NCBI GenBank assembly: GCA_965207885.1
Contig: OZ242311.1
Coordinates: forward strand, 5,024,001 to 5,088,000
Reading direction: 5' to 3'
DNA from: Candidatus Latescibacterota bacterium
GTDB taxonomy: Bacteria > Latescibacterota > UBA2968
DNA: 64,000 nt
How positions within the stretch are numbered: position 1 is the stretch's first letter; every line of letters starts with the position of its first letter. Of this stretch, positions 8,607-36,818 are shown piece by piece. The notes below the pieces were generated by a model, which was given only the letters and a program-made list of their open reading frames with translations, had not been told where the DNA came from and ran no database searches. The translations under genes were made by a program, and so were the position numbers.

Positions 8607-10265
8607 ATGCCAGACCGCCCCAACATTCTCGTCCTCATGACCGACCAGCAGCGCGCAGATGCCATGGGCTGCGCTGGAAATACAACAATCCGCACGCCCA
8701 ACCTCGACGCGCTCGCCAGTTCAGGGATTCGCTTTGCACAGGCCGTCACGCCCACCCCCGTCTGCGTTGCTGCGCGCATGAGTTTTATCACCGGTCACAG
8801 AATGTCCCGACACCACTGGACAGACAACAGTGCGCTACCTGGTCCCTTACCCGAACTTCCCACCATCATGACGCTTCTTCTGCGCGCCGGGTACTGGACA
8901 CAGGGCATTGGGAAAATGCACTTTCACGGTCGGCACTACGGCTTCCGAAATCTCCTCACAATGGAAGAAGGCATCGATTATTGGGTCAATGACGACTACA
9001 TCCGCTATCTGCGAGAAAACGGTGTTCGCACCCGTTTTCCCAAAGGCATCCGCGACCTGCTCTTCTTCCAGCCCCAAACCTGTGGCATACCTGTTGAACA
9101 CCACAAAAATACCTGGGTCGCCAACCGATCCATTGACTTTCTCCGCGAACACACGCGCTACCGCGCCAATCAACCCTTTTTCCTGTGGAGTTCCTGGATA
9201 TCACCGCATCCGCCCTTTGCACCCTGCGAACCGTACGACGACATGTACGACCCCGCCGACATGGAACTTCCGCCCTTTGCCGACCGCCCTATCGAAACCC
9301 TGCCACCCAATTTTTACGGCAGCCGCGGACGTCTGGACGGTGCCCATCGCGATCCCGACCGCCTGCGCCGCCTGCGTGCCCTTTACTATGGCCTCATCTC
9401 TCATGTTGACGACGGCATTGGTCGCATTTTGAATGAACTCGAAACCCTCGGCCTATCCGATAACACTGTCGTCCTCTTTGTCTCAGACCACGGTGAAATG
9501 ATGGGCGAACACGGCCTCTCGCAAAAAAACTGCCCTTATGAATCCTCCGTCCGCATTCCATATCTCCTCCGCTGGCCCGGCAAAACGCGAGCGGGGCAAC
9601 AACGCGATGACCTCGTCAGCCTGCTCGACTTCTTTCCCACCCTCATAGAAGAACTCGACCTCCAGTACCCAGAAGAACACGGTCCGTTATCAGGAGCGAA
9701 TCTCCTCGGCACAACAGGTGGGGGCCTGGCAGAGCCTCGAGAATCCGCGATTATAGACTATGGCAAGGGCAAAGGACGCTGGATTTCAGCGCGCAACCAG
9801 AAACACAAATACGCCTTTTTTGCCCGCGGCGGAATCGAAGAACTCTACCACCTTGAAAACGATCCACACGAACAGCACAACCTCATCGCCGAAAACCCCG
9901 CATTGGCGTCAAAATTTCGCGATCAAATCACCGTCTGGGAACGACAATATGGCCTGAGTAATTCGCTTGACGGCGATAGGCTGCGCTCGTATCCCGGTCC
10001 GGCCCGCATACCCACAGAAGAAGAATGTCGCACGGTCAACCTCAACGACGGCCCCTGGCCCAAGCGCTTACCCGATGATGAAAAAGACAGTATCGAAACC
10101 TTTGCCGAAGCATTTACCCGCGCCATCAGCAAAGAAACCACCTTATCGCCCGACAAATTGAGCATCGGAAAATATAAAGAACAAGTGCTCAAACGCGGTC
10201 CCCGAGATATCGCCGCAGAATCGCTTGAAGGCACGCCGTGGGAAGACGCCTGGCACAACGCATAA
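8607..10265 (+). CDS. Sulfatase family protein (choline-sulfatase-like)
   Basis: RPNILVLMTDQQR, CVAAR, GKMH, PHPP, SDHGEM motifs. Confidence 0.92.
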   Translation: MPDRPNILVLMTDQQRADAMGCAGNTTIRTPNLDALASSGIRFAQAVTPTPVCVAARMSFITGHRMSRHHWTDNSALPGPLPELPTIMTLLLRAGYWTQGIGKMHFHGRHYGFRNLLTMEEGIDYWVNDDYIRYLRENGVRTRFPKGIRDLLFFQPQTCGIPVEHHKNTWVANRSIDFLREHTRYRANQPFFLWSSWISPHPPFAPCEPYDDMYDPADMELPPFADRPIETLPPNFYGSRGRLDGAHRDPDRLRRLRALYYGLISHVDDGIGRILNELETLGLSDNTVVLFVSDHGEMMGEHGLSQKNCPYESSVRIPYLLRWPGKTRAGQQRDDLVSLLDFFPTLIEELDLQYPEEHGPLSGANLLGTTGGGLAEPRESAIIDYGKGKGRWISARNQKHKYAFFARGGIEELYHLENDPHEQHNLIAENPALASKFRDQITVWERQYGLSNSLDGDRLRSYPGPARIPTEEECRTVNLNDGPWPKRLPDDEKDSIETFAEAFTRAISKETTLSPDKLSIGKYKEQVLKRGPRDIAAESLEGTPWEDAWHNA

Positions 10266-10308
10266 GCACTGAAAAAACCCATTCATATTAGATAGTCCGA
10301 TTAATCCC

Positions 10309-11052
10309 ATGCCAGACTACGCCACTTTTGAAAACCGCTTAAAAAATATCGCGCACCCCGACATTGGCCATCACATCATTGGCCATGTTCACGGTTATGC
10401 TTTTCATTGCCTCACAATTGGCAAACCCGCGCCATCAAAACCGAATATTCTCCTCTCGGCAGGTGTACACGGCGATGAACCCGCGGGGGTCGAAGCCATC
10501 CTTCAATTTCTCGAACGCGATATCGCAGATATAATCCAGCACTTTCACATCGTCGTTTTACCCTGTGTCAACCCTTCTGGATACGTCAACAACCAGCGAG
10601 AAAATATCCAGGGTGAAGACATCAATCGCGCTTTCAAAAACGAAGTCCCCGAATCCACCCTTTTCAAACAGCAGCTTGCGGGATATCGTTTTGACATCTT
10701 TCTCGACATGCACGAAGATTACGACGCAACAGGTACTTATTTTTACGAAGGCAAACGCGATAGCGCGTGGTTGGCCCCAGCCATCGCACAACAGGCAAAA
10801 AAAATTGGTCCCCTGGATGCGGATACCGCTGAAACCGATATCCCACTCGCAGAGGGCGTCTTGCAAATCGATCCCGCCTGGGGTGAAAGCGGTTTTACCT
10901 CTTATGTCTATATCCATCATGCCGGCCACGTCATGATCACTGAAACATCATCCAACTGGCCTATGGATAGGCGAGCTAAAGTACACCTGCTCGCCCTTGA
11001 TATGATCCTCGATCACTATTCGACGGCACTCAAAGGAGAACCACGTGAATAA
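10309..11052 (+). CDS. M14 metallocarboxypeptidase / succinylglutamate desuccinylase family
   Basis: HGDE, NPSG, DINR, DMHED, ITET. Confidence 0.85.
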
Positions 11053-28547: not shown

Positions 28548-29573
28548 TCATTTTTTTACTAATATCTCAATCGCTGTTTCAAAAATGCGATCCGTCCCAC
28601 TTTCCAAAAGCGCGTCCGGCGTCGAAACCCAAACATCGGGTGCAAGGCCAACACCTTCAAAAGGTTCAAAGTTGGAGGTAAACTCTAACCATCTCGGAAC
28701 GCGAGAAGTCCACCCATTGGGCAGTTCACGATACACGGGATTGCCAGAACCCCCTCCCGTTGTATCGCCAACAACCGTGACATGGGGCAAAGTACGCATC
28801 ATAAGCACAAAGGATTCTGCCGCGCTAAAAACGCGACGATTGGTGAGTAAGGCGATTGGTCTGGTAAATGTGATATTGCCTTTGGGTTCAAGATAATCTG
28901 CCTGAAAAGACGTAAAATCGCTGTGATCAGGTCCATTGCGCCATTGGACATGTCGATACAATCGCCTTTCATTTGTAAATCTGCCAGCAATATCCTTTGC
29001 ATTGCGATCATTGCCTCCATCATTGTTGCGGACATCGACAATGAGTCCTTGTATATTGCCCATTTCTCTCAGTGCGATTTCGATGTCGCGTCCCCAATTG
29101 CCACCACTAAAATCGAGAAAACTGCCGATATGCACATATCCAATTTGCTCATCCACCAAGCGATATTGTATCGGACTGTCCGCGACATTTATAGTGAGGT
29201 TCAAATAGTTAATGGCTAAAATCTCGCGGTCATAATTGCGCGGATATTGATCCCACCAGGCAGTGTATGAATAATTTCCCAAAGGCGTGTAAAGATTTAC
29301 ATGCCCATCTCGGAATATTGCGAGCATATTGCTCATAATGAGAAAAAGCTCCTCATCCGTTGTCTGCAATGTGACCTGTGGGCGATAGATGGCATAAACC
29401 GAATCCCAGTCAACGCCTTTGAGTTCAAATGCGGCATAGAGGCGGTCGTATTCTTGCCAGAGGTATTCAAAATTGCTTTCGGGTGTGTTTTCTGGAACAG
29501 AATTGGTAATAGTTCGACTACACCCCATGCACAAGAGAATCAAAATGAGACATATTGACAGACAAGTCTTCAC
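28548..29573 (-). CDS. S41 family serine peptidase, probable lipoprotein
   Basis: Lipobox-like MGC, DVRNNDGG, FSAAESF, VGDTTGGG, EGVGLAPD. Confidence 0.9.
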   Translation of the reverse strand: MKTCLSICLILILLCMGCSRTITNSVPENTPESNFEYLWQEYDRLYAAFELKGVDWDSVYAIYRPQVTLQTTDEELFLIMSNMLAIFRDGHVNLYTPLGNYSYTAWWDQYPRNYDREILAINYLNLTINVADSPIQYRLVDEQIGYVHIGSFLDFSGGNWGRDIEIALREMGNIQGLIVDVRNNDGGNDRNAKDIAGRFTNERRLYRHVQWRNGPDHSDFTSFQADYLEPKGNITFTRPIALLTNRRVFSAAESFVLMMRTLPHVTVVGDTTGGGSGNPVYRELPNGWTSRVPRWLEFTSNFEPFEGVGLAPDVWVSTPDALLESGTDRIFETAIEILVKK

Positions 29574-29575
29574 CT

Positions 29576-30328
29576 CTAAAACCTCCAATTGATCAACGCA
29601 CTCATTTGATCAATGCCGATTTGCACGCTACGCGGTTCGGTATAGCGATAGAGTTGCCCCCAATATTGTATCTGAAAAGACCATCTATTAGAAAGATTAT
29701 GCGTCCAGACGAGATTGTGTTCCACGCTTAAAAATTGATGCAGACTTGTTGTATCGAAGTCTCCGTTTCCACCCATGCCATGGGCATGACGCCATAAGAA
29801 TGCGAGCGCGGGTACAGACAGGCTATAAGATAAAGATGATTGAGATGTCCATTCAAATTGCAATGCGATTGAAGGTTGCACCGAACCTATGAGTTCACCA
29901 AAATATTCACGGCGAGATTGTGAGTAAAATTGTCTGCGAACATGAATAAATGCCTGTTGAACAACCCCCCAAAGCAACCGAATGCGCCCGGGCGATTCAG
30001 ACCTGAAGGATCGGTGATATGCATATCTCACTTGAATGCGCGTTAATTCAACCCTGTGATTGCGCCCTCGGGTAATAGACGATGTGAGCAGCCCAGCATC
30101 CCAAATAAAGGATATATGATGACTGCGTTTGGCATTTTGAGCGCGATATTTGATGAGCCACCCTCGACCATCTCCATTGTACGTAAATGGCGAAGCCAGA
30201 TTGTCCTTGCTACGCATCGCGAACAAACCGAGACCAATACCGAATTGCCGCATATTTTTTGTCTCAGCCTTCACAGATTGCGCGATCAACACACAACCGA
30301 CCAAGACCAAACCAATATATTTCACCAT
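29576..30328 (-). CDS. Outer-membrane beta-barrel protein
   Basis: Signal peptide, amphipathic beta strands, C-terminal WRF. Confidence 0.7.
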   Translation of the reverse strand: MVKYIGLVLVGCVLIAQSVKAETKNMRQFGIGLGLFAMRSKDNLASPFTYNGDGRGWLIKYRAQNAKRSHHISFIWDAGLLTSSITRGRNHRVELTRIQVRYAYHRSFRSESPGRIRLLWGVVQQAFIHVRRQFYSQSRREYFGELIGSVQPSIALQFEWTSQSSLSYSLSVPALAFLWRHAHGMGGNGDFDTTSLHQFLSVEHNLVWTHNLSNRWSFQIQYWGQLYRYTEPRSVQIGIDQMSALINWRF

Positions 30329-30486: not shown

Positions 30487-32286
30487 TCATCTGCGAATAC
30501 TCTTGACCGCTCCCACATCTTTCCCCCATAAAAGACTCAAACTAAAGCTCAATTCCAGACCGCTGAAATTTTTGCGACCTCTTATTGGCTCCGCAAAATT
30601 TGCAATCAGATGATAGCCCGCGCTTGCGCCGAGCATCAAATACCTTCCGATGGCAAAATCAACACCACCACCGATATAAGCTCCCAAACTGGCTTGAATA
30701 CGACCTTCTTGAACGATCCTCGATGTAGTCAAGTCGAGATTTAGCTTTTCAAGATCAGCCTGAACGTTGACAGTTCGCCCCTCATCGTCTTCTTGCACCT
30801 TAACGCTAACGCCTTCCGCCTCAATATCGACGTTTGGTACATCTCGTCCTATACCAACTTTTTGAGAGGTGTCTGATAAAAAATAGGATCCCGCACTTGC
30901 GACAACATAAGGGCGAAAAGGGGATGGTGCCAGAGGCCAGTAGTACCTTACACCAAAAAGCAGAGGCATAACAACGACGGCATCCTCTGATATGCCTATA
31001 ACACCCACATTTTGCTCGATCTCTGCAATCAACCCAGCCCATCGAACCATCAAAGCCAGATTTTCTTTGAGCTGATAGATATAAGCGACAGCCCCCATCA
31101 CATTCTCTGCACTCTGCTGTACCAATCCGCTCCCTACACTTTGCCGCGCCAATCCGCCTGTGCTGGTAGTAGATCTTCCAACTGGATTCCAATATCCGCC
31201 GCGCAATTCGATCCGAGAGCGCTTTACGCTATATTTAATCCCGCCCCGAGTTGTGGTACGTTCTCGCGCAACAATTTCAAAATCATCTTCGTCAAGTATC
31301 TCGCGCTGTCCCATCGCCAATTCGACCGAAGCTGTAGCCGATTGAATCTCACGGGCCATGTGAACGCGATACGTGCCGGGTTCCAAACCCAACTCAACGC
31401 GCCGTCCAGCGGGCTTGAACAACTCTGCGATCAACTGTCGATTGGCATTTCGAATAAAAAATCGCCCCTGAAGCGACTCCGCCAAAACCAGTCCCGCCGA
31501 CGTTTGTCGCACATCCGTCATCACCACATCGCCCGTACCCGTCATCTTGATATCATAAGCTGGATGCTGTGCCCCTCCTCGTGTGCGTTCCGTGCCCTCC
31601 AATGTATTTTGAAACGCGAAGTGATAGGCTTCATTCAACGTGACGCGCCCATCTCCGGTCACATCTGCTGCACCGCGCAATCCCGACACCAGATAATGCG
31701 AAAAAAATGACGCCCCAATCGCATCCGACTCCTGCGCCGCTTCATCTTCCGAACTCGACGTCAAAAACGCATACCCCCGCATATCCGACGACGCATCCAC
31801 CATAAACGCTTTCTGGCGTCTCCCGCCCTTCAATCGCGTAATCGCACCAGAAGCACAGGCATCCAAAATAGCAATATGCACTTCGGCTTCCATCCTATCC
31901 ATTGCATTGCGTAGGCGTGCGTAGGAAAAAAGCGATTCACCCAGGCGAAGGCCATTTTCATCGGCGTGGCCCGAATAATAGATAATCACCTCTCTCCGCG
32001 CTGCTTCAGCAGACGCAACCCGATTGTGCAATACGTACAAAGCCTCTTCAAGATGGTCAATGTGCGGATCGGATAACAAAACACCGGCATCAACCCCACC
32101 CATTGTTTCCATGACCTGCACAAAATTTTGAGCATCAGAGACAGCATATTGCAGGGTCTCGCGCTTTGCCCCGCCATCATTGGCACCCACAGCCAGCACC
32201 CACCGCCGCACGCCATCTACCGCATACAGATCTTGAACAATCAGAACACAGAGTACCATCATAAGAGCCAAAACGCGACCAAACAT
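30487..32286 (-). CDS. Secreted caspase-like (C14) peptidase fused to a C-terminal beta-barrel
   Basis: Signal peptide, YYSGHAD (His), LDACASG (Cys), OmpW/OmpA-like strands RPYVVASAG..GGGVDF. Confidence 0.88.
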   Translation of the reverse strand: MFGRVLALMMVLCVLIVQDLYAVDGVRRWVLAVGANDGGAKRETLQYAVSDAQNFVQVMETMGGVDAGVLLSDPHIDHLEEALYVLHNRVASAEAARREVIIYYSGHADENGLRLGESLFSYARLRNAMDRMEAEVHIAILDACASGAITRLKGGRRQKAFMVDASSDMRGYAFLTSSSEDEAAQESDAIGASFFSHYLVSGLRGAADVTGDGRVTLNEAYHFAFQNTLEGTERTRGGAQHPAYDIKMTGTGDVVMTDVRQTSAGLVLAESLQGRFFIRNANRQLIAELFKPAGRRVELGLEPGTYRVHMAREIQSATASVELAMGQREILDEDDFEIVARERTTTRGGIKYSVKRSRIELRGGYWNPVGRSTTSTGGLARQSVGSGLVQQSAENVMGAVAYIYQLKENLALMVRWAGLIAEIEQNVGVIGISEDAVVVMPLLFGVRYYWPLAPSPFRPYVVASAGSYFLSDTSQKVGIGRDVPNVDIEAEGVSVKVQEDDEGRTVNVQADLEKLNLDLTTSRIVQEGRIQASLGAYIGGGVDFAIGRYLMLGASAGYHLIANFAEPIRGRKNFSGLELSFSLSLLWGKDVGAVKSIRR

Positions 32287-32332: not shown

Positions 32333-34012
32333 CTAAAACGCCCGCCGAAACCGCACCCAAACCCGCCAATCAACCGGACCGTTCGCATCCAGCGGCCGGG
32401 CAAAAAACACGCGCAAATTATCGGTCTTTAATCCAAATCCCGCACTCGTTACAACCCGTGTTTCAACAGGCCCTCTATCCGAAAACCACGCCTTACCCGC
32501 ATCAAAAAATACACCGATGCCAACATCATCTAAAGGCCAGTCATCCCTAAAATGAGCTTCGCCATCAACCCAATAAATCGCATTAAACAGCACCATGCGA
32601 TCTCCCTCATAAGCATTCAATCCATAACCCCTAAGCGAAGAAGGACCTCCGAGACGATAGAGAAATTGCACGGGCACACGTCCTCGTCCAGTACCCGCGC
32701 GAACGCGCAAATTCAATTGGGTCCCACGCCCCGCATACTGATAGCGGCGCACATCCAGGATATAGCGTTCAAAATCAAAATCGCCTCCCCAAATACCACC
32801 TGCTTTCTCAGCCTGTGCCATTAAACGCCATCCCTGTCGAGACCGTTGGCTCGCACGACTATCTAACTGTAGTGTACCCATTACACTGTGCATTTGCCCG
32901 GCCTCAATCTCTGGATTGGGTCGAAAATTCATCCGGCTGCCCCATCGATCGCCAAATAGATTCCAGGAAACGCTATTGGGCATCGACTCGAAAACATCTA
33001 CACCCACCTGTCCTCGAACCTCTACCATCCGATCAAAATCCCGAAAAATATAAGTACTGGCCCCCTCCCGACGATAATAGTCTCTAAAATCGCGTCGCAA
33101 CAAAAAGGCAAAAATCGAATTTTCTATCTCATCAATACGCCAATTATCTTGCGTATTTGTCAACCCGTGCAATTCAAAACCCAGCGCGACCATGTTGTCC
33201 TTTGACGCACCAGAAAAAGTAAAAAACTCAGCACCAGCCTGATAATCCCACCGATTACTCCCAAATCCATAACCCACTTCGCCATAGTGCGCCACCCCGC
33301 GCGAAGTGCGATATTTCAATGGCAAGCGCCAGCCAATAAAAACGCCATCCACCCGATTGTAACGCACCAAAAAATCTTCGTGATCAATGCGCCAAATATT
33401 CGAAAATGGGGCGATATGTGCCTTCCATGAACCCAGGCGGTGGTGTGCTATGTGGGAGACAGACGGTTTATATCCGGGCAATAAACGAGCAACGCGATCA
33501 AAAGCCTCCACCTCTAATTCCCGACCAACAGTTCCCATTTTATCAACTTGAACAACACCAACCACATTGACCAGCGTTAAAGTGGCAGCCTTGCGATCAT
33601 GGACCATTGCAAACAGACCAATAACAGCATCTGCTTCCTTCTGTAAATACACCGATACGCGCTCGCGTTTCTTCCGTGACTGAACGGTTATCTCCCAACC
33701 CATCGCATCTAAATATCGCGCAATTTTGTCCATACGCATTGCAATCTCATCAACCGACAGAACATGCACGCGCACCAGCTTCAGGTCTGATAAGGCCTCA
33801 CCAACTTTTTTATTTTTATTTTTGACCCTTTCAGCGACCTGCTGCAACATCAATTGTCCAATAGACACATCCGCAGTGACATCTTTGGACTCAAACACAT
33901 CCAGTGATCCAACCGCCACATAACCCAAATGACTGGAAATATCTTGCTGTGCATTCGCGATTCCATAAATGAAAAAACAAATGACACTCGCGCACAAAAT
34001 CATTCGGTACAT
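32333..34012 (-). CDS. DUF4252-like domain fused to an Omp85/BamA-like outer-membrane barrel
   Basis: Signal peptide, RYNRVDG, LGGPSSLRGY, VFFDAGKAW, terminal F. Confidence 0.65.
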   Translation of the reverse strand: MYRMILCASVICFFIYGIANAQQDISSHLGYVAVGSLDVFESKDVTADVSIGQLMLQQVAERVKNKNKKVGEALSDLKLVRVHVLSVDEIAMRMDKIARYLDAMGWEITVQSRKKRERVSVYLQKEADAVIGLFAMVHDRKAATLTLVNVVGVVQVDKMGTVGRELEVEAFDRVARLLPGYKPSVSHIAHHRLGSWKAHIAPFSNIWRIDHEDFLVRYNRVDGVFIGWRLPLKYRTSRGVAHYGEVGYGFGSNRWDYQAGAEFFTFSGASKDNMVALGFELHGLTNTQDNWRIDEIENSIFAFLLRRDFRDYYRREGASTYIFRDFDRMVEVRGQVGVDVFESMPNSVSWNLFGDRWGSRMNFRPNPEIEAGQMHSVMGTLQLDSRASQRSRQGWRLMAQAEKAGGIWGGDFDFERYILDVRRYQYAGRGTQLNLRVRAGTGRGRVPVQFLYRLGGPSSLRGYGLNAYEGDRMVLFNAIYWVDGEAHFRDDWPLDDVGIGVFFDAGKAWFSDRGPVETRVVTSAGFGLKTDNLRVFFARPLDANGPVDWRVWVRFRRAF

Positions 34013-34024
34013 ATTCCCCTCCGA

Positions 34025-35593
34025 TCAGAATAACAACAAACCCAACCCCACGCTGTACTCCATTCCACTATAATCCGTTTGCCCATCCACCGGCACAGCA
34101 AAAGGCTCGACAAACCGATTATAGCCTATGCGTCCACCCAGAACAAAAGACTTCAAAAACGGCACATCCAGTCCACCACCCCAATACAACCCATTCACTT
34201 CATCGACATTCTCATCCAATACTTTACCCGTGTACCGACCAACGCCTCCTTCGGCATAAGGGCGCAGAGGTGAACGCCACATATTCAAAGGCATATAAAT
34301 ACGCAGACTGACCAGCTCAGATGACACGCCTGCTTTTTTTTCATCGTCAGCAAACGAAAATCCCGAACGAGAATAATTGATCGAAACATGTTCTGTGGGC
34401 CAGAATCCAAAAATCCAGGCTTTGCTATCATCCCCCAGTTGCCATGCGCCCCTGCTGCGTTCAAGACGCCATCTGCCGGATAGCCTGTGTGGATAGCGGG
34501 CAGATGTCCCGGTTGTTGGCTTCCTCAACGCAGGCCCTCGGCTCGTGGTTTTTTCGCGCACTTGAGAGCGAAAATGCCGATTCTCAAGCAAAAACCGCTC
34601 ACCCTTTTTTAACGCGACCTTTGAATGCAACAATTGCATTCGGTGTTCAAAATGAATGTCATAAACCTCGGGTTCCAATCCCAACTCGAGCGTTTGCCCG
34701 GCGGTCTTGTCCAGCTCTGCCACCAGTTGCTCCTGCGAATTGCGCACAAAAAATCGGCCATTCAACTCATCCGACAAAATCAAACTCGCCGATGTCTCTC
34801 GCACATCGGTCATCACCACATCGCCTGTACCCGTCATCTTAATATCATAAGCCGGATGCTGCGCCCCTCCCTGAGTTTTTTCGGTTCGCTTCAGCGTATT
34901 GCGAAATGCAAACGCATACGCTTCGCTGAGTGTCACCTTGCCATCACCAGTCACATCTGCTGCACCCCGCAAGCCAGACACCAGATAATGCGTGAAAAAC
35001 GATCCGCGAATGCGATCCGATTCTTGTGCAGCCTCATTTTCGGAACTCGAAGTCAAAAACGCATACCCCCGCATATCCGACGACGTATCGACCATAAAGG
35101 CTTTTTGCCTTTGCCCGCCTTTCAGGCGCGTAATAGCGCCCGAAGCACACGCATCGAGCACAGTAATATGCACATCCGCCTGAACGCTATTCATTGCATC
35201 GCGCAAAGCGCGATAGGTCAACCGATCTTCTCCCAACAGCAACCCATTTTCATCGGCATGCCCCGAATAATACAGGACAACTTCGATGCGACTCGACGAT
35301 TGGGATGCTTTTATAACCCGAGATTGCAAATCCATCAAAACCCGTTTAAAATTTTCCAAACTCGGCTCGGCCAATAAAAATTGATCCTCAGATTCAACTC
35401 CCCCCATCATCTCTAAAACACGAGCAAAATGTTTTGCATCCGATACGGCATAACGCAGAGGTATGCGTTTCTCCCCACCAAAATTTGCGCCAGCCGCCAA
35501 CACAAAACGCCGCACAACCTGTGATGCCTCAATTCCCTGAGCACATAACAGCAGACCGATCCCCAACAGTACTACCCATCGGCGCAACATCAC
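34025..35593 (-). CDS. Secreted caspase-like (C14) peptidase fused to a C-terminal beta-barrel
   Basis: Signal peptide, YYSGHAD, LDACASG, RPYAEGGVG..GGGLDV, terminal LLLF. Confidence 0.88.
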   Translation of the reverse strand: MMLRRWVVLLGIGLLLCAQGIEASQVVRRFVLAAGANFGGEKRIPLRYAVSDAKHFARVLEMMGGVESEDQFLLAEPSLENFKRVLMDLQSRVIKASQSSSRIEVVLYYSGHADENGLLLGEDRLTYRALRDAMNSVQADVHITVLDACASGAITRLKGGQRQKAFMVDTSSDMRGYAFLTSSSENEAAQESDRIRGSFFTHYLVSGLRGAADVTGDGKVTLSEAYAFAFRNTLKRTEKTQGGAQHPAYDIKMTGTGDVVMTDVRETSASLILSDELNGRFFVRNSQEQLVAELDKTAGQTLELGLEPEVYDIHFEHRMQLLHSKVALKKGERFLLENRHFRSQVREKTTSRGPALRKPTTGTSARYPHRLSGRWRLERSRGAWQLGDDSKAWIFGFWPTEHVSINYSRSGFSFADDEKKAGVSSELVSLRIYMPLNMWRSPLRPYAEGGVGRYTGKVLDENVDEVNGLYWGGGLDVPFLKSFVLGGRIGYNRFVEPFAVPVDGQTDYSGMEYSVGLGLLLF

Positions 35594-36348
35594 CTGCCCC
35601 CTTTATAAAGCGTAATGGCAAATTGCTCAAACCCTCTTCCCACTTGCAATGAATCGGGACCGCCCTTTGCCGCTTGTGCCACATCGCGCACGTCAAAAGA
35701 CATATCTGCTGTCAAAAAATAAAACCGTTCCCACTTTGGGGCATCATCCAGTTCGTAAGAATAATCCAGAGACACCGGATCGCCCTGTATCAAGCGCACG
35801 GCACTTGTTCCCGATGAGGGCAAATGCCGCGTCACAGTGCCGCGCCCATCCACAGACACAATCACCCCAAAAGGCTTGCCCGCCGCGCGATAAAAAATCT
35901 GAATCAAATCGCCTGTATAAGCCACACTGCTATCCGACAATTGTTCAATCTCAGACGCCCTTTTTCGATACAACAACAAATCCGGCTTTACGCCTTTTAA
36001 CCGAATGCCATCCATCCCTTTCCGATCCCAGGGTGGCGGCACTTCAGGCCCCGGTAAATAGATCGAAAAAACAACGGCGAGCAAAATCACAGCGGCCAAT
36101 GCCAAACGCGGACCGAACCGCGATATACTCGGCACCCCTCGCCTCTCCGACCGGCGCGCAACCTGCCGCGCAACCCACTCAGTCGGATAGGACGCGTGAA
36201 TTTCTCGATCTGACCCTTCCAATGCCTCCAGGCGCGCTCTCAAATCCGGGTCCTCATCCAGCGCCCTTTGAACAGCTCTCATTTCTTCTTCCGGCAATTC
36301 ATTCAGCCGAAAACGCTCCAGTTTCCAATCACCGCGTTGTCTCCTCAT
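35590..36348 (-). CDS. Putative membrane anti-sigma factor with a periplasmic DUF4384/ActD-like domain
   Basis: Degenerate ASD-like N-terminus (LERFRLNELP..L...R..LE.L), one TM, IRLKG, GDLIQI..VSVDGRG..SYELDDAP..ERFYF; overlaps the sigma gene stop. Confidence 0.75.
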   Translation of the reverse strand: MRRQRGDWKLERFRLNELPEEEMRAVQRALDEDPDLRARLEALEGSDREIHASYPTEWVARQVARRSERRGVPSISRFGPRLALAAVILLAVVFSIYLPGPEVPPPWDRKGMDGIRLKGVKPDLLLYRKRASEIEQLSDSSVAYTGDLIQIFYRAAGKPFGVIVSVDGRGTVTRHLPSSGTSAVRLIQGDPVSLDYSYELDDAPKWERFYFLTADMSFDVRDVAQAAKGGPDSLQVGRGFEQFAITLYKGGR

Positions 36349-36818
36349 AGATCCTCCAACTTCTCCAGCGATTCTCGCAACCCCCGCAACCGTTTTCGCA
36401 CTCCAGAAACCGACATACCAACCTCCCGAGCGACTTCCGCCAATGTGAAACCATCCACAAAATGTAAAACCGCAATTGTTCGCGTCGAATCTCTGTGCCG
36501 GGCAAAAAGCCGGTCGAGCATCGCCCGAGCATCCAACCGCGATTCCAGATCTTCAATCCCAGCAATGTGTATCAACTTCTCATCACCCGGCAGATCGAGC
36601 CGCTGATCGCGAATGCGATTCAAACACACATTGGTCGCAATGCGATATAGCAAACTCGACGGATAGGTCGCTTTCAGACGATCCCGGCGTTGCAATACCC
36701 GCACAAAAACATCTTGCATGGCATCCATGGCGCGATCTTCATCTCGCAACAACCGCCGACAGCGACGCAACACCATAGGACCGTATTTTTGATATAACAA
36801 TTCGACATTCATAAACAA
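36345..36818 (-). CDS. ECF sigma70 factor
   Basis: DAMQDVF, LYRIATNVC, G.TLAEVAREVGMSVSGVRKRL. Confidence 0.92.
   Translation of the reverse strand: MFMNVELLYQKYGPMVLRRCRRLLRDEDRAMDAMQDVFVRVLQRRDRLKATYPSSLLYRIATNVCLNRIRDQRLDLPGDEKLIHIAGIEDLESRLDARAMLDRLFARHRDSTRTIAVLHFVDGFTLAEVAREVGMSVSGVRKRLRGLRESLEKLEDL

Follow-up and report, generated by a model that had tools for sequence, protein, structure and literature searches.

Why do a membrane-anchored anti-sigma factor and the two caspase-like proteases encoded beside it carry the same tetrapeptide, RLKG? The question arises from a 64,000-nucleotide stretch of a Candidatus Latescibacterota genome (contig OZ242311.1; hereafter the window). It holds a string of genes, all on the minus strand, which encode a sigma factor of the extracytoplasmic function (ECF) type with 157 amino acids (aa; 36345..36818), a single-pass anti-sigma factor of 252 aa (35590..36348) and two cysteine proteases of family C14, caspase 1 (522 aa, 34025..35593) and its paralogue caspase 2 (599 aa, 30487..32286), which has the same DACASGAITRLKGG. 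An earlier note on this DNA had reported RLKG in the anti-sigma factor and in the loop behind the catalytic cysteine of both caspases, and had interpreted it as a protease site. Translation bore out the shared motif, with coordinates that were right to within a few bases. In the anti-sigma factor, the motif comprises R116, L117, K118 and G119 (35992-36003, context WDRKGMDGIRLKGVKPD); with the preceding isoleucine it reads IRLKG (residues 115-119, 35992-36006). In caspase 1 it occupies residues 156-159 (35117-35128, context LDACASGAITRLKGGQ) and in caspase 2 residues 151-154 (31825-31836), in both cases 7-10 residues past the catalytic Cys. The answer that we favour, with modest confidence, is that in both proteins the motif is a site of recognition and cleavage by the operon's own periplasmic C14 caspases.

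Conservation of the motif in both partners

A search of a collection of 5.8 billion proteins yielded 247 homologues of the anti-sigma factor; the 120 best, which extend down to about 37% identity, were aligned. K118 and G119 are present in all 120 of these sequences and R116 in 117. Position 117 is variable (I, L, V, P, T, R or A), and the surrounding linker varies freely. We also compared 80 loci, one genome per species, 79 of which contain the motif region (two alignment rows were corrected by eye). Here, the anti-sigma lysine was found in 79/79 loci and the glycine behind it in 78/79 (Ser in L018). The arginine occurs in 72/79; the exceptions are L014 (Ala), L054 (Tyr) and the Vicinamibacterales loci L016, L018, L028, L047 and L048 (Thr). 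Judged by these alignments, the invariant core is K-G, more widely basic-Gly, usually with Arg at position -2, and not the full RLKG. Since the arginine is dispensable, the site is better written as x-K/G or basic/Gly. The outcome that the earlier note had named as fatal to its proposal, a motif unconserved among anti-sigma homologues, did not occur (K-G in 120/120).

Two variations were observed within the linker. A second basic-Gly sequence, DRKG (residues 108-111, in the 35992-36030 region of the window), precedes RLKG by 8 residues; since only the closest relatives keep it (DREG or DQKG in others), it falls outside the conserved motif. In the anti-sigma factors of L009, L011 and P0011, a four-residue in-frame duplication, IRLKGVIKGVKPD, has produced tandem K-G sites.

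The caspase loops show the motif with similar regularity. Among 81 neighbouring caspases from 76 loci, R and K are each present in 81/81, the following G in 79/81 and a preceding T in 77/81. Across 31 caspases from different phyla, R156, K158 and G160 do not vary, and at least 90% conservation is seen for T155 and G159. A HMMER search with the caspase domain returned 2228 cluster representatives at E <= 1e-30 (clusters at 50% identity). In the best 150 of these 2228, K occurs in 150/150, R in 149/150 and the pattern x-R-x-K-[GS]-G in 146/150, with at least 16 different residues in the middle position. The co-conservation of (T/I)RxKG in the two proteins, which the earlier note had proposed to look for, was thus found over 120 anti-sigma factors, 79 loci and 81 + 150 caspases.

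The genes for the two partners lie together as well. The 80 loci span at least eight phyla (Latescibacterota, Acidobacteriota/Vicinamibacterales, Gemmatimonadota, Myxococcota, Aminicenantes, Leptospirales, Fermentibacteria, Eisenbacteria and others); in 76 of them the caspase gene is directly downstream of the anti-sigma gene on the same strand, and in 78 a sigma gene is upstream. Only sigma factor, anti-sigma factor and caspase are conserved together across phyla. At L073 the contig ends 170 nt past the anti-sigma gene, and at L037 and L064 no caspase was found within 8 kb of the anti-sigma gene. At L004, a 410-aa IS605-type TnpB (OrfB_IS605 plus a Cas12f1-like TNB domain) replaces caspase 1 and most of the Omp85-family gene that follows it in the window, of which a short C-terminal remnant is kept. 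The replacement lies at 8756-10542 of that locus; its anti-sigma factor is 90% identical to that of the window and still carries RLKG. No family caspase was found in the L004 genome with the caspase query used, and the loss looks recent.

Diverged copies of the module, of which Myxococcota genomes hold five to eight or more, show the same pairing. An Archangium genome gave seven C14 matches. The five that adjoin an ECF sigma gene all have T/A-R-x-K-G past the Cys; the two without a sigma neighbour have unrelated loops, from which the motif is absent. Four zinc-finger anti-sigma factors of this genome, which phmmer did not find with the window's anti-sigma factor as query (E <= 1e-3, open reading frames of those four regions), contain TNRLKGG, EGRTKGA, GTRMKGA and GLRSKGS, 9-16 residues past the transmembrane (TM) helix. 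A Myxococcus genome has eight family caspases, seven of them with an upstream TM protein that bears the motif. In the most distant of these seven modules (31% identity), the caspase reads G-S-R-G-G and the anti-sigma factor T-S-R-G-E. The basic residue lies 6-25 residues past the TM helix in the other modules and 21 residues past it in the window's anti-sigma factor. For the middle residue x, no co-variation between the partners was apparent in the paralogue pairs, as judged by eye.

For the eighth Myxococcus caspase (L101), no anti-sigma factor was found in the 1.5 kb upstream. Its loop reads TRYKGG, it is 54% identical to caspase 1, and it belongs to the same Myxococcus genome (G006) as L064, where a sigma/anti-sigma pair with the motif has no caspase within 8 kb. 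L064 and L101 may be a split pair that acts in trans.

A large sister clade was found across 81 genomes of the order to which the Myxococcus genome belongs. Its caspase loops read [SRAGKDPT]-R-G (for example SRGG or ARGI) and its anti-sigma linkers [FWLVI]-x-[AVSPE]-R-G. A tree of 75 caspase domains, calculated with the loop masked and using 29 of the 76 window-family loci, set two deep clades apart with 100% support. In the window's clade, both partners have K in 39/39 modules. In the other clade both have R in 33/36, both have K in one (the basal L132), and two are discordant. Basic-Gly therefore persists in both partners across both deep clades. The tree excludes L126 and L151 (anti-sigma R-S, which is not basic-Gly), L134 and L155 (caspase loop PRK(A/P)GG), L107 (a duplicate of L108), and L101, L121-L124, L136, L137, L139, L140, L142 and L149 (no anti-sigma factor in the flank). 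K and R were assigned from alignments and checked by hand. A rule that took the first basic-Gly past the TM helix was rejected: in the window it picked DRKG and not RLKG, and it produced eight false K/R mismatches.

Predicted architecture of the anti-sigma factor and the caspases

The anti-sigma factor was modelled with AlphaFold2 from a 53-sequence alignment, with a mean pLDDT (predicted local distance difference test) of 87.2. In the model, a cytoplasmic N-terminal domain of four helices (residues 2-69) is followed by the TM helix (residues 81-97, RLALAAVILLAVVFSIY, 36058..36108), a juxtamembrane linker (residues 98-118, 35995..36057) and a periplasmic immunoglobulin (Ig)-like or macroglobulin-like beta-sandwich (residues 119-252, 35593..35994), whose pLDDT is about 95 from residue 123. 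Apart from its terminal motif, the linker is hypervariable in length and sequence. It is gap-rich in the alignment of 120 homologues and predicted to be disordered, with pLDDT below 50 at residues 102-104, 106-109 and 112-116. The end of the motif coincides exactly with the start of the globular periplasmic domain, and the structural matches obtained for this domain with VIA-align likewise begin at residues 117-121. The best matches in the wide VIA-align search (9ard_B, Z 8.8, root-mean-square deviation 2.9, 102 residues aligned; 2p9r_B, Z 8.3) are generic Ig-like or macroglobulin-like folds and therefore point to no specific family. A Foldseek search of the model against the PDB returned no match at E <= 0.001.

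This protein is a putative anti-sigma factor. Pfam assigned no family to it, and NCBIfam anti-sigma profiles gave weak, sub-threshold matches (24.5 bits against a cut-off of 225). The four-helix N-terminal domain and TM helix of the model favour the assignment, as do the overlapping genes and the zinc-binding HxxxCxxC that is present in most of the paralogous partners, including five of the seven in the Myxococcus genome. The upstream gene matches Pfam Sigma70_r2 (1.1e-14) and Sigma70_r4_2, and its score against the NCBIfam profile sigma70-ECF (TIGR02937), 69.9 bits over a cut-off of 42.9, places its product among the ECF-type sigma factors. Some sources name the anti-sigma homologues anti-sigma factor RsiW or ActD-like protein. 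For the latter label (NCBI records P0008 and P0090), a search of the literature on the Myxococcus act operon yielded papers in which the term actD does not occur; if Myxococcus ActD does belong to the anti-sigma family, that literature may already hold phenotypes of the module. One homologue, P0029 (369 aa), combines Sigma70_r2 with a match to the whole anti-sigma factor at 64% identity, and is either a natural fusion or a gene-call artefact across the stop/start overlap.

Both caspases belong to family C14, with 44.9 bits for caspase 1 and 34.5 bits for caspase 2 against Pfam Peptidase_C14 (cut-off 21.4). Their scores against the NCBIfam profile NF047832 (EACC1-associated), 59.7 and 55.8 bits, lie below its cut-off of 140. 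Caspase 1 consists of a signal peptide, the C14 domain, a beta-sandwich and a C-terminal eight-stranded beta-barrel. Its AlphaFold2 model (pLDDT 84.1) has the caspase-hemoglobinase fold: Foldseek against the PDB matched it to the metacaspases 7qp1 and 4f6o, to MALT1 and to caspase-7 with E values of 2e-7 to 1e-6 and a probability of 1.00. The eight strands of the barrel span residues 375-521 (34031..34471), and the chain ends in ...GLLLF. Pfam OMP_b-brl matches caspase 1 weakly, and Foldseek relates the barrel to those of OprF, OmpA and NspA (4rlc OprF, E 3.7e-7, target-normalised TM-score 0.79). From the signal peptide and the barrel we predict that caspase 1 resides in the periplasm, tethered to the outer membrane. 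The anchor of the family is clade-dependent. The eight-stranded barrel is found in the window's clade; other family caspases of Latescibacterota and Myxococcota have a longer, repeat-rich C-terminus that ends in ...WPGF..G.R, and residues 1-345 stay conserved.

The catalytic residues of caspase 1 are H112 (35258-35260) and C149 (35147-35149). S110, G111, H112, D147 and C149 are invariant in the 31 caspases across phyla, with the His-Cys dyad in its SGH and DxC contexts. In the metacaspase AtMC4, Lys225, at which the enzyme cuts itself, is held in a pocket formed by Ser84 (two residues ahead of His86), Asp137 (likewise two ahead of Cys139), Asp352 and Ser350 (10.1101/2020.03.09.983940). S110 and D147 of caspase 1 are the equivalents of the S1-pocket residues Ser84 and Asp137. 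Because these pocket residues match, and because orthocaspases cut after positively charged residues (PMC6426788), it is a reasonable inference that the caspase cuts after a basic P1.

In the model of caspase 1, C149 and a short helix (152-155) come after a strand (residues 141-147), and the helix is followed by a loop (residues 156-174, RLKGGQRQKAFMVDTSSDM, 35072..35128) and then by the next core strand. The loop, which opens with the motif, has no predicted secondary structure, and its pLDDT is below 50 at residues 158-171. We take its position to be that of the L2 loop, or inter-subunit linker, of caspases.

A proposed site-1 cut and its alternatives

With gene order, motif conservation, loop positions, fold and catalytic residues as observed, we infer the following course of events. 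The caspase would be exported and anchored in the outer membrane via its C-terminal barrel. Its own motif, in the flexible loop behind the Cys, would either be cut for maturation or occupy the active site and so keep the enzyme inhibited, a variant modelled on Lys225 of AtMC4. In the anti-sigma factor, the motif would be offered where a disordered linker ends, 21 residues past the TM helix and just before the Ig-like domain. As site-1 protease, the caspase would cut after K118, at the K118/G119 bond, so that the whole Ig-like domain is shed and a stub of 21 residues is left. An M50 site-2 protease, of which the genome encodes two, could then remove the stub, and the ECF sigma factor would be released. 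The lysine is favoured as P1 because K-G is the invariant pair and because x includes proline, and a proline directly after a scissile bond would be unusual. Since the motif ends at the domain boundary, a cut after K118 would free exactly the folded domain. The interpretation of the motif as a protease site, put forward in the earlier note, is partly supported. In its favour are the retention of basic-Gly in both partners, the predicted flexibility of the loops, the domain boundary and the S1-pocket residues; its weak points are the dispensable arginine and a group of caspases that keeps the motif with no sigma or anti-sigma factor beside it.

Several observations weigh against this proposal. 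The anti-sigma factor and caspase 1 have two 4-mers in common, against a mean of 2.4 in 2000 shuffles of the anti-sigma sequence, and a shuffled anti-sigma factor has a 4-mer in common with the 22 residues past the catalytic Asp-x-Cys with P = 0.055. Sharing a tetrapeptide is thus at chance level, and the identity in one genome proves nothing alone; the resemblance rises above chance because the motif is conserved in both partners. The arginine is missing in 7 of the 79 anti-sigma factors, and the full RLKG match is partly fortuitous. At L004, L037 and L064 the anti-sigma factor keeps the motif with no adjacent caspase. The caspase domain is conserved throughout, with 53-75% identity among the best 150 representatives and 52 invariant columns among the 31 sequences, so the conservation of its loop tells less than that of the anti-sigma linker.

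The comparison of clades also has its limits. The two discordant modules are L125 (caspase R, anti-sigma K) and L135 (caspase K, anti-sigma R). In an independent-pairs test of K against R, each trait changed twice, which left two pairs (p = 1) and no power. For this reason we do not claim co-variation, and claim instead that both partners switch from K to R on one and the same deep branch; the concordance rests on about one evolutionary event. Eleven R-clade caspases have no anti-sigma factor in their flanks. Ten of these form a sub-clade with the loop motif retained (DACDSY..SRG; a similar DSCNAY..RRGG loop in L122), and in three sub-clade loci for which wider regions were taken (L158-L160, 15-17 kb) no sigma homologue was found either. 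The sub-clade includes the loci L121-L124, L136, L137, L139, L140 and L142; at L158, the one locus analysed with Pfam, a subtilase and an Ig-domain protein (He_PIG) are encoded nearby. A sub-clade in which no sigma or anti-sigma neighbour was found and which keeps the motif indicates that the caspase motif has a role of its own, in which the anti-sigma factor is not necessarily involved. The caspase motif may be intrinsic, structural or concerned with self-processing only.

These points lend themselves to an explanation in which the two motifs are conserved for unrelated reasons: TRxKGG would be a structural or catalytic element of the caspase, and the RxKG of the anti-sigma factor would cap or start the Ig-like domain, or bind something else, with coincidence and common descent accounting for the resemblance. 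The sub-clade, the overall conservation of the caspase domain and the near-singular K/R event all agree with this, as does the position of G119 as the first residue of the folded domain. We nevertheless consider it unlikely. Anti-sigma factors that sequence searches do not link to one another all have basic-Gly 6-25 residues past the TM helix, in linkers that cannot be aligned. In Archangium, the motif is present in all five sigma-linked caspases and absent from the two unlinked ones, and one deep branch carries the switch from K-G to R-G of both partners.

In another explanation, recognition takes place and no cut follows. The anti-sigma motif would be a pseudo-substrate or docking peptide, or a competitor of the caspase's own loop; signalling would proceed by binding and release, or the anti-sigma factor would restrain the caspase. 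In both deep clades the motif resembles the loop of the enzyme itself, which would suit this arrangement, as would the persistence of the motif where the caspase gene is not adjacent (L064, L037) and the precedent of AtMC4, whose linker lysine stays uncut in the active site until Ca2+ arrives (10.1101/2020.03.09.983940). It appears rather improbable to us, as an unstructured basic-Gly peptide beside an active Cys-His dyad, with H112 and C149 invariant, is expected to be cut. In addition, TM anti-sigma factors are generally inactivated by proteolysis.

A third protease, either a trypsin-like periplasmic enzyme or the S41 peptidase of the operon, might instead cut basic-Gly in both proteins, with the caspase as a fellow substrate or downstream effector. 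The window's gene string does contain a C-terminal processing peptidase of family S41 (28548-29588; Pfam Peptidase_S41, 99.8 bits, plus Tricorn_C1), and the site-1 proteases of other anti-sigma factors are serine proteases or metalloproteases. Against this, S41 enzymes act at C-termini, among the 80 loci an S41 gene beside the module was seen in the window's clade alone (L008 and L011), and sigma factor, anti-sigma factor and caspase are the only genes kept together across phyla, which makes the explanation very improbable. Pure chance, with a tetrapeptide common to neighbours and no functional meaning, agrees with the shuffling results for the window and is close to refuted by the conservation data, namely K-G in 120/120 anti-sigma factors, K in 81/81 and the following G in 79/81 caspase loops, and its recurrence in diverged paralogous modules.

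Returning to cleavage by the operon's own caspases, it is uncertain whether an enzyme anchored in the outer membrane would reach a proposed site that is only some 21 residues away from the inner membrane. Given a barrel that ends in an outer-membrane-protein-like ...LLLF, the caspase may reach the inner-membrane anti-sigma factor only when it is not inserted. This is part of a wider picture, which we offer tentatively and rate as somewhat less than probable: a widespread envelope module, in which an outer-membrane-anchored caspase is the site-1 protease of its own anti-sigma factor, self-processing and shedding are coupled via basic-Gly, and the module senses outer-membrane protein assembly by the fate of its protease. 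A complex prediction for caspase 1 (residues 25-350) and the anti-sigma factor (residues 98-252), run with alignments, scored 0.00 twice and is evidence neither way.

The gene string and related systems

The window's sigma gene overlaps the anti-sigma gene, stop on start, and the anti-sigma gene overlaps that of caspase 1 in the same way; the three proteins are presumably produced together. The 6.2-Mb genome contains two C14 genes, those of caspase 1 and caspase 2. Between them sits the gene for an Omp85-family protein with DUF4252 (559 aa, 32333..34012; Pfam Omp85 36.7 bits, DUF4252 31.5 bits), which is confined to the window's close relatives (L003, L005-L009, L012 and L017). Together with the barrel of caspase 1, this neighbour hints at a tie to outer-membrane protein assembly. 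Further downstream lie the genes for a 250-aa protein without a family match (29576-30328) and for the S41 peptidase; these two (28548..30328) are uncertain members of the system.

Bacteria have abundant homologues of caspases, but for very few of them is a substrate or a physiological role known. In this case, genome context and a conserved motif together name a candidate substrate (the neighbouring anti-sigma factor), a bond (K118/G119) and an output (release of the ECF sigma factor), so that a function in a very large protease family becomes testable with a few point mutants. If the proposal is correct, TM anti-sigma factors can also be inactivated by way of a cysteine protease, in addition to the ways already known, and the module provides a simple bacterial caspase whose self-processing and substrate sites are the same motif. 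In the literature searched, no report came up of a separate periplasmic C14 caspase that is paired with an anti-sigma factor, or of a motif shared between such an enzyme and its substrate; the supplementary tables of ECF classifications, which lay outside the search, could list the gene context.

Regulated intramembrane proteolysis of TM anti-sigma factors is classical, with DegS/RseA/RseP for sigma-E of Escherichia coli and PrsW/RsiW/RasP of Bacillus subtilis as examples. The system described here resembles both in that an ECF sigma factor is paired with a putative single-pass anti-sigma factor, for which a membrane-near site-1 cut, here a proposed one, would be followed by an M50 protease. 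Unlike in those two, the proposed site-1 protease is a C14 cysteine protease of the same operon, which is predicted to be anchored in the outer membrane and itself bears the substrate motif.

Among prokaryotic caspases, those associated with EACC1 and EACC2 in bacterial conflict systems have ECF sigma genes in their neighbourhoods, with co-occurrence described for the EACC2-caspase systems, and activation by autopeptidase activity has been proposed (PMC8195603). In contrast, the system here has no EACC or TPR/DUF1822 partner and lies in the envelope. Proteins with CHAT domains occur in the gene context of the ECF54 group (PMC8999054). MaOC1 of Microcystis is a prokaryotic C14 enzyme specific for basic residues, a specificity proposed for the present caspases as well; it requires autoprocessing (PMC5756287) and cleaves an antitoxin encoded next to it (PMC5756287, PMC7935541, PMC6426788). 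That neighbour belongs to a toxin-antitoxin pair and not to a sigma/anti-sigma pair, and no motif common to enzyme and substrate is reported in the text compared.

AtMC4 offers a parallel for the loop. Its basic linker residue Lys225, the first self-cleavage site, lies in an acidic S1 pocket, and the equivalents of two residues of that pocket, S110 and D147, are invariant here. AtMC4 differs in its long linker, with the site about 85 residues past the Cys, and in its triggering by Ca2+ (10.1101/2020.03.09.983940), whereas here the distance is 9 residues and the predicted location of the enzyme is the periplasm, with an anchor in the outer membrane.

Two further systems couple a caspase fold to an anti-sigma factor. 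In Craspase, the type III-E TPR-CHAT protein Csx29 cuts the putative anti-sigma factor Csx30 and thereby frees an ECF-type sigma factor (PMC10028731). Craspase is, unlike the present module, cytoplasmic, RNA-guided and CRISPR-associated, and its cuts follow Met or Leu rather than a basic residue (PMC11506125). In DdvA/DdvS of Myxococcus xanthus, a TM anti-sigma factor is likewise tied to a periplasmic protease module with a caspase fold, and caspase-like proteolysis of a flexible juxtamembrane linker has been proposed to precede RseP (PMC11506125). There, the TPR-CHAT part is fused to the anti-sigma factor and its active site is incomplete; action in trans, between the members of a dimer, has been proposed for it (PMC11506125). 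The anti-sigma factor of the window is no such fusion: it has 252 aa, and its periplasmic part is the 134-residue Ig-like domain. A search for longer proteins that hold this domain, in particular caspase fusions, scored none, which is weak evidence. In place of the fused module of DdvA, the present system has a separate C14 protein, and a basic-Gly motif is common to the enzyme and its proposed substrate.

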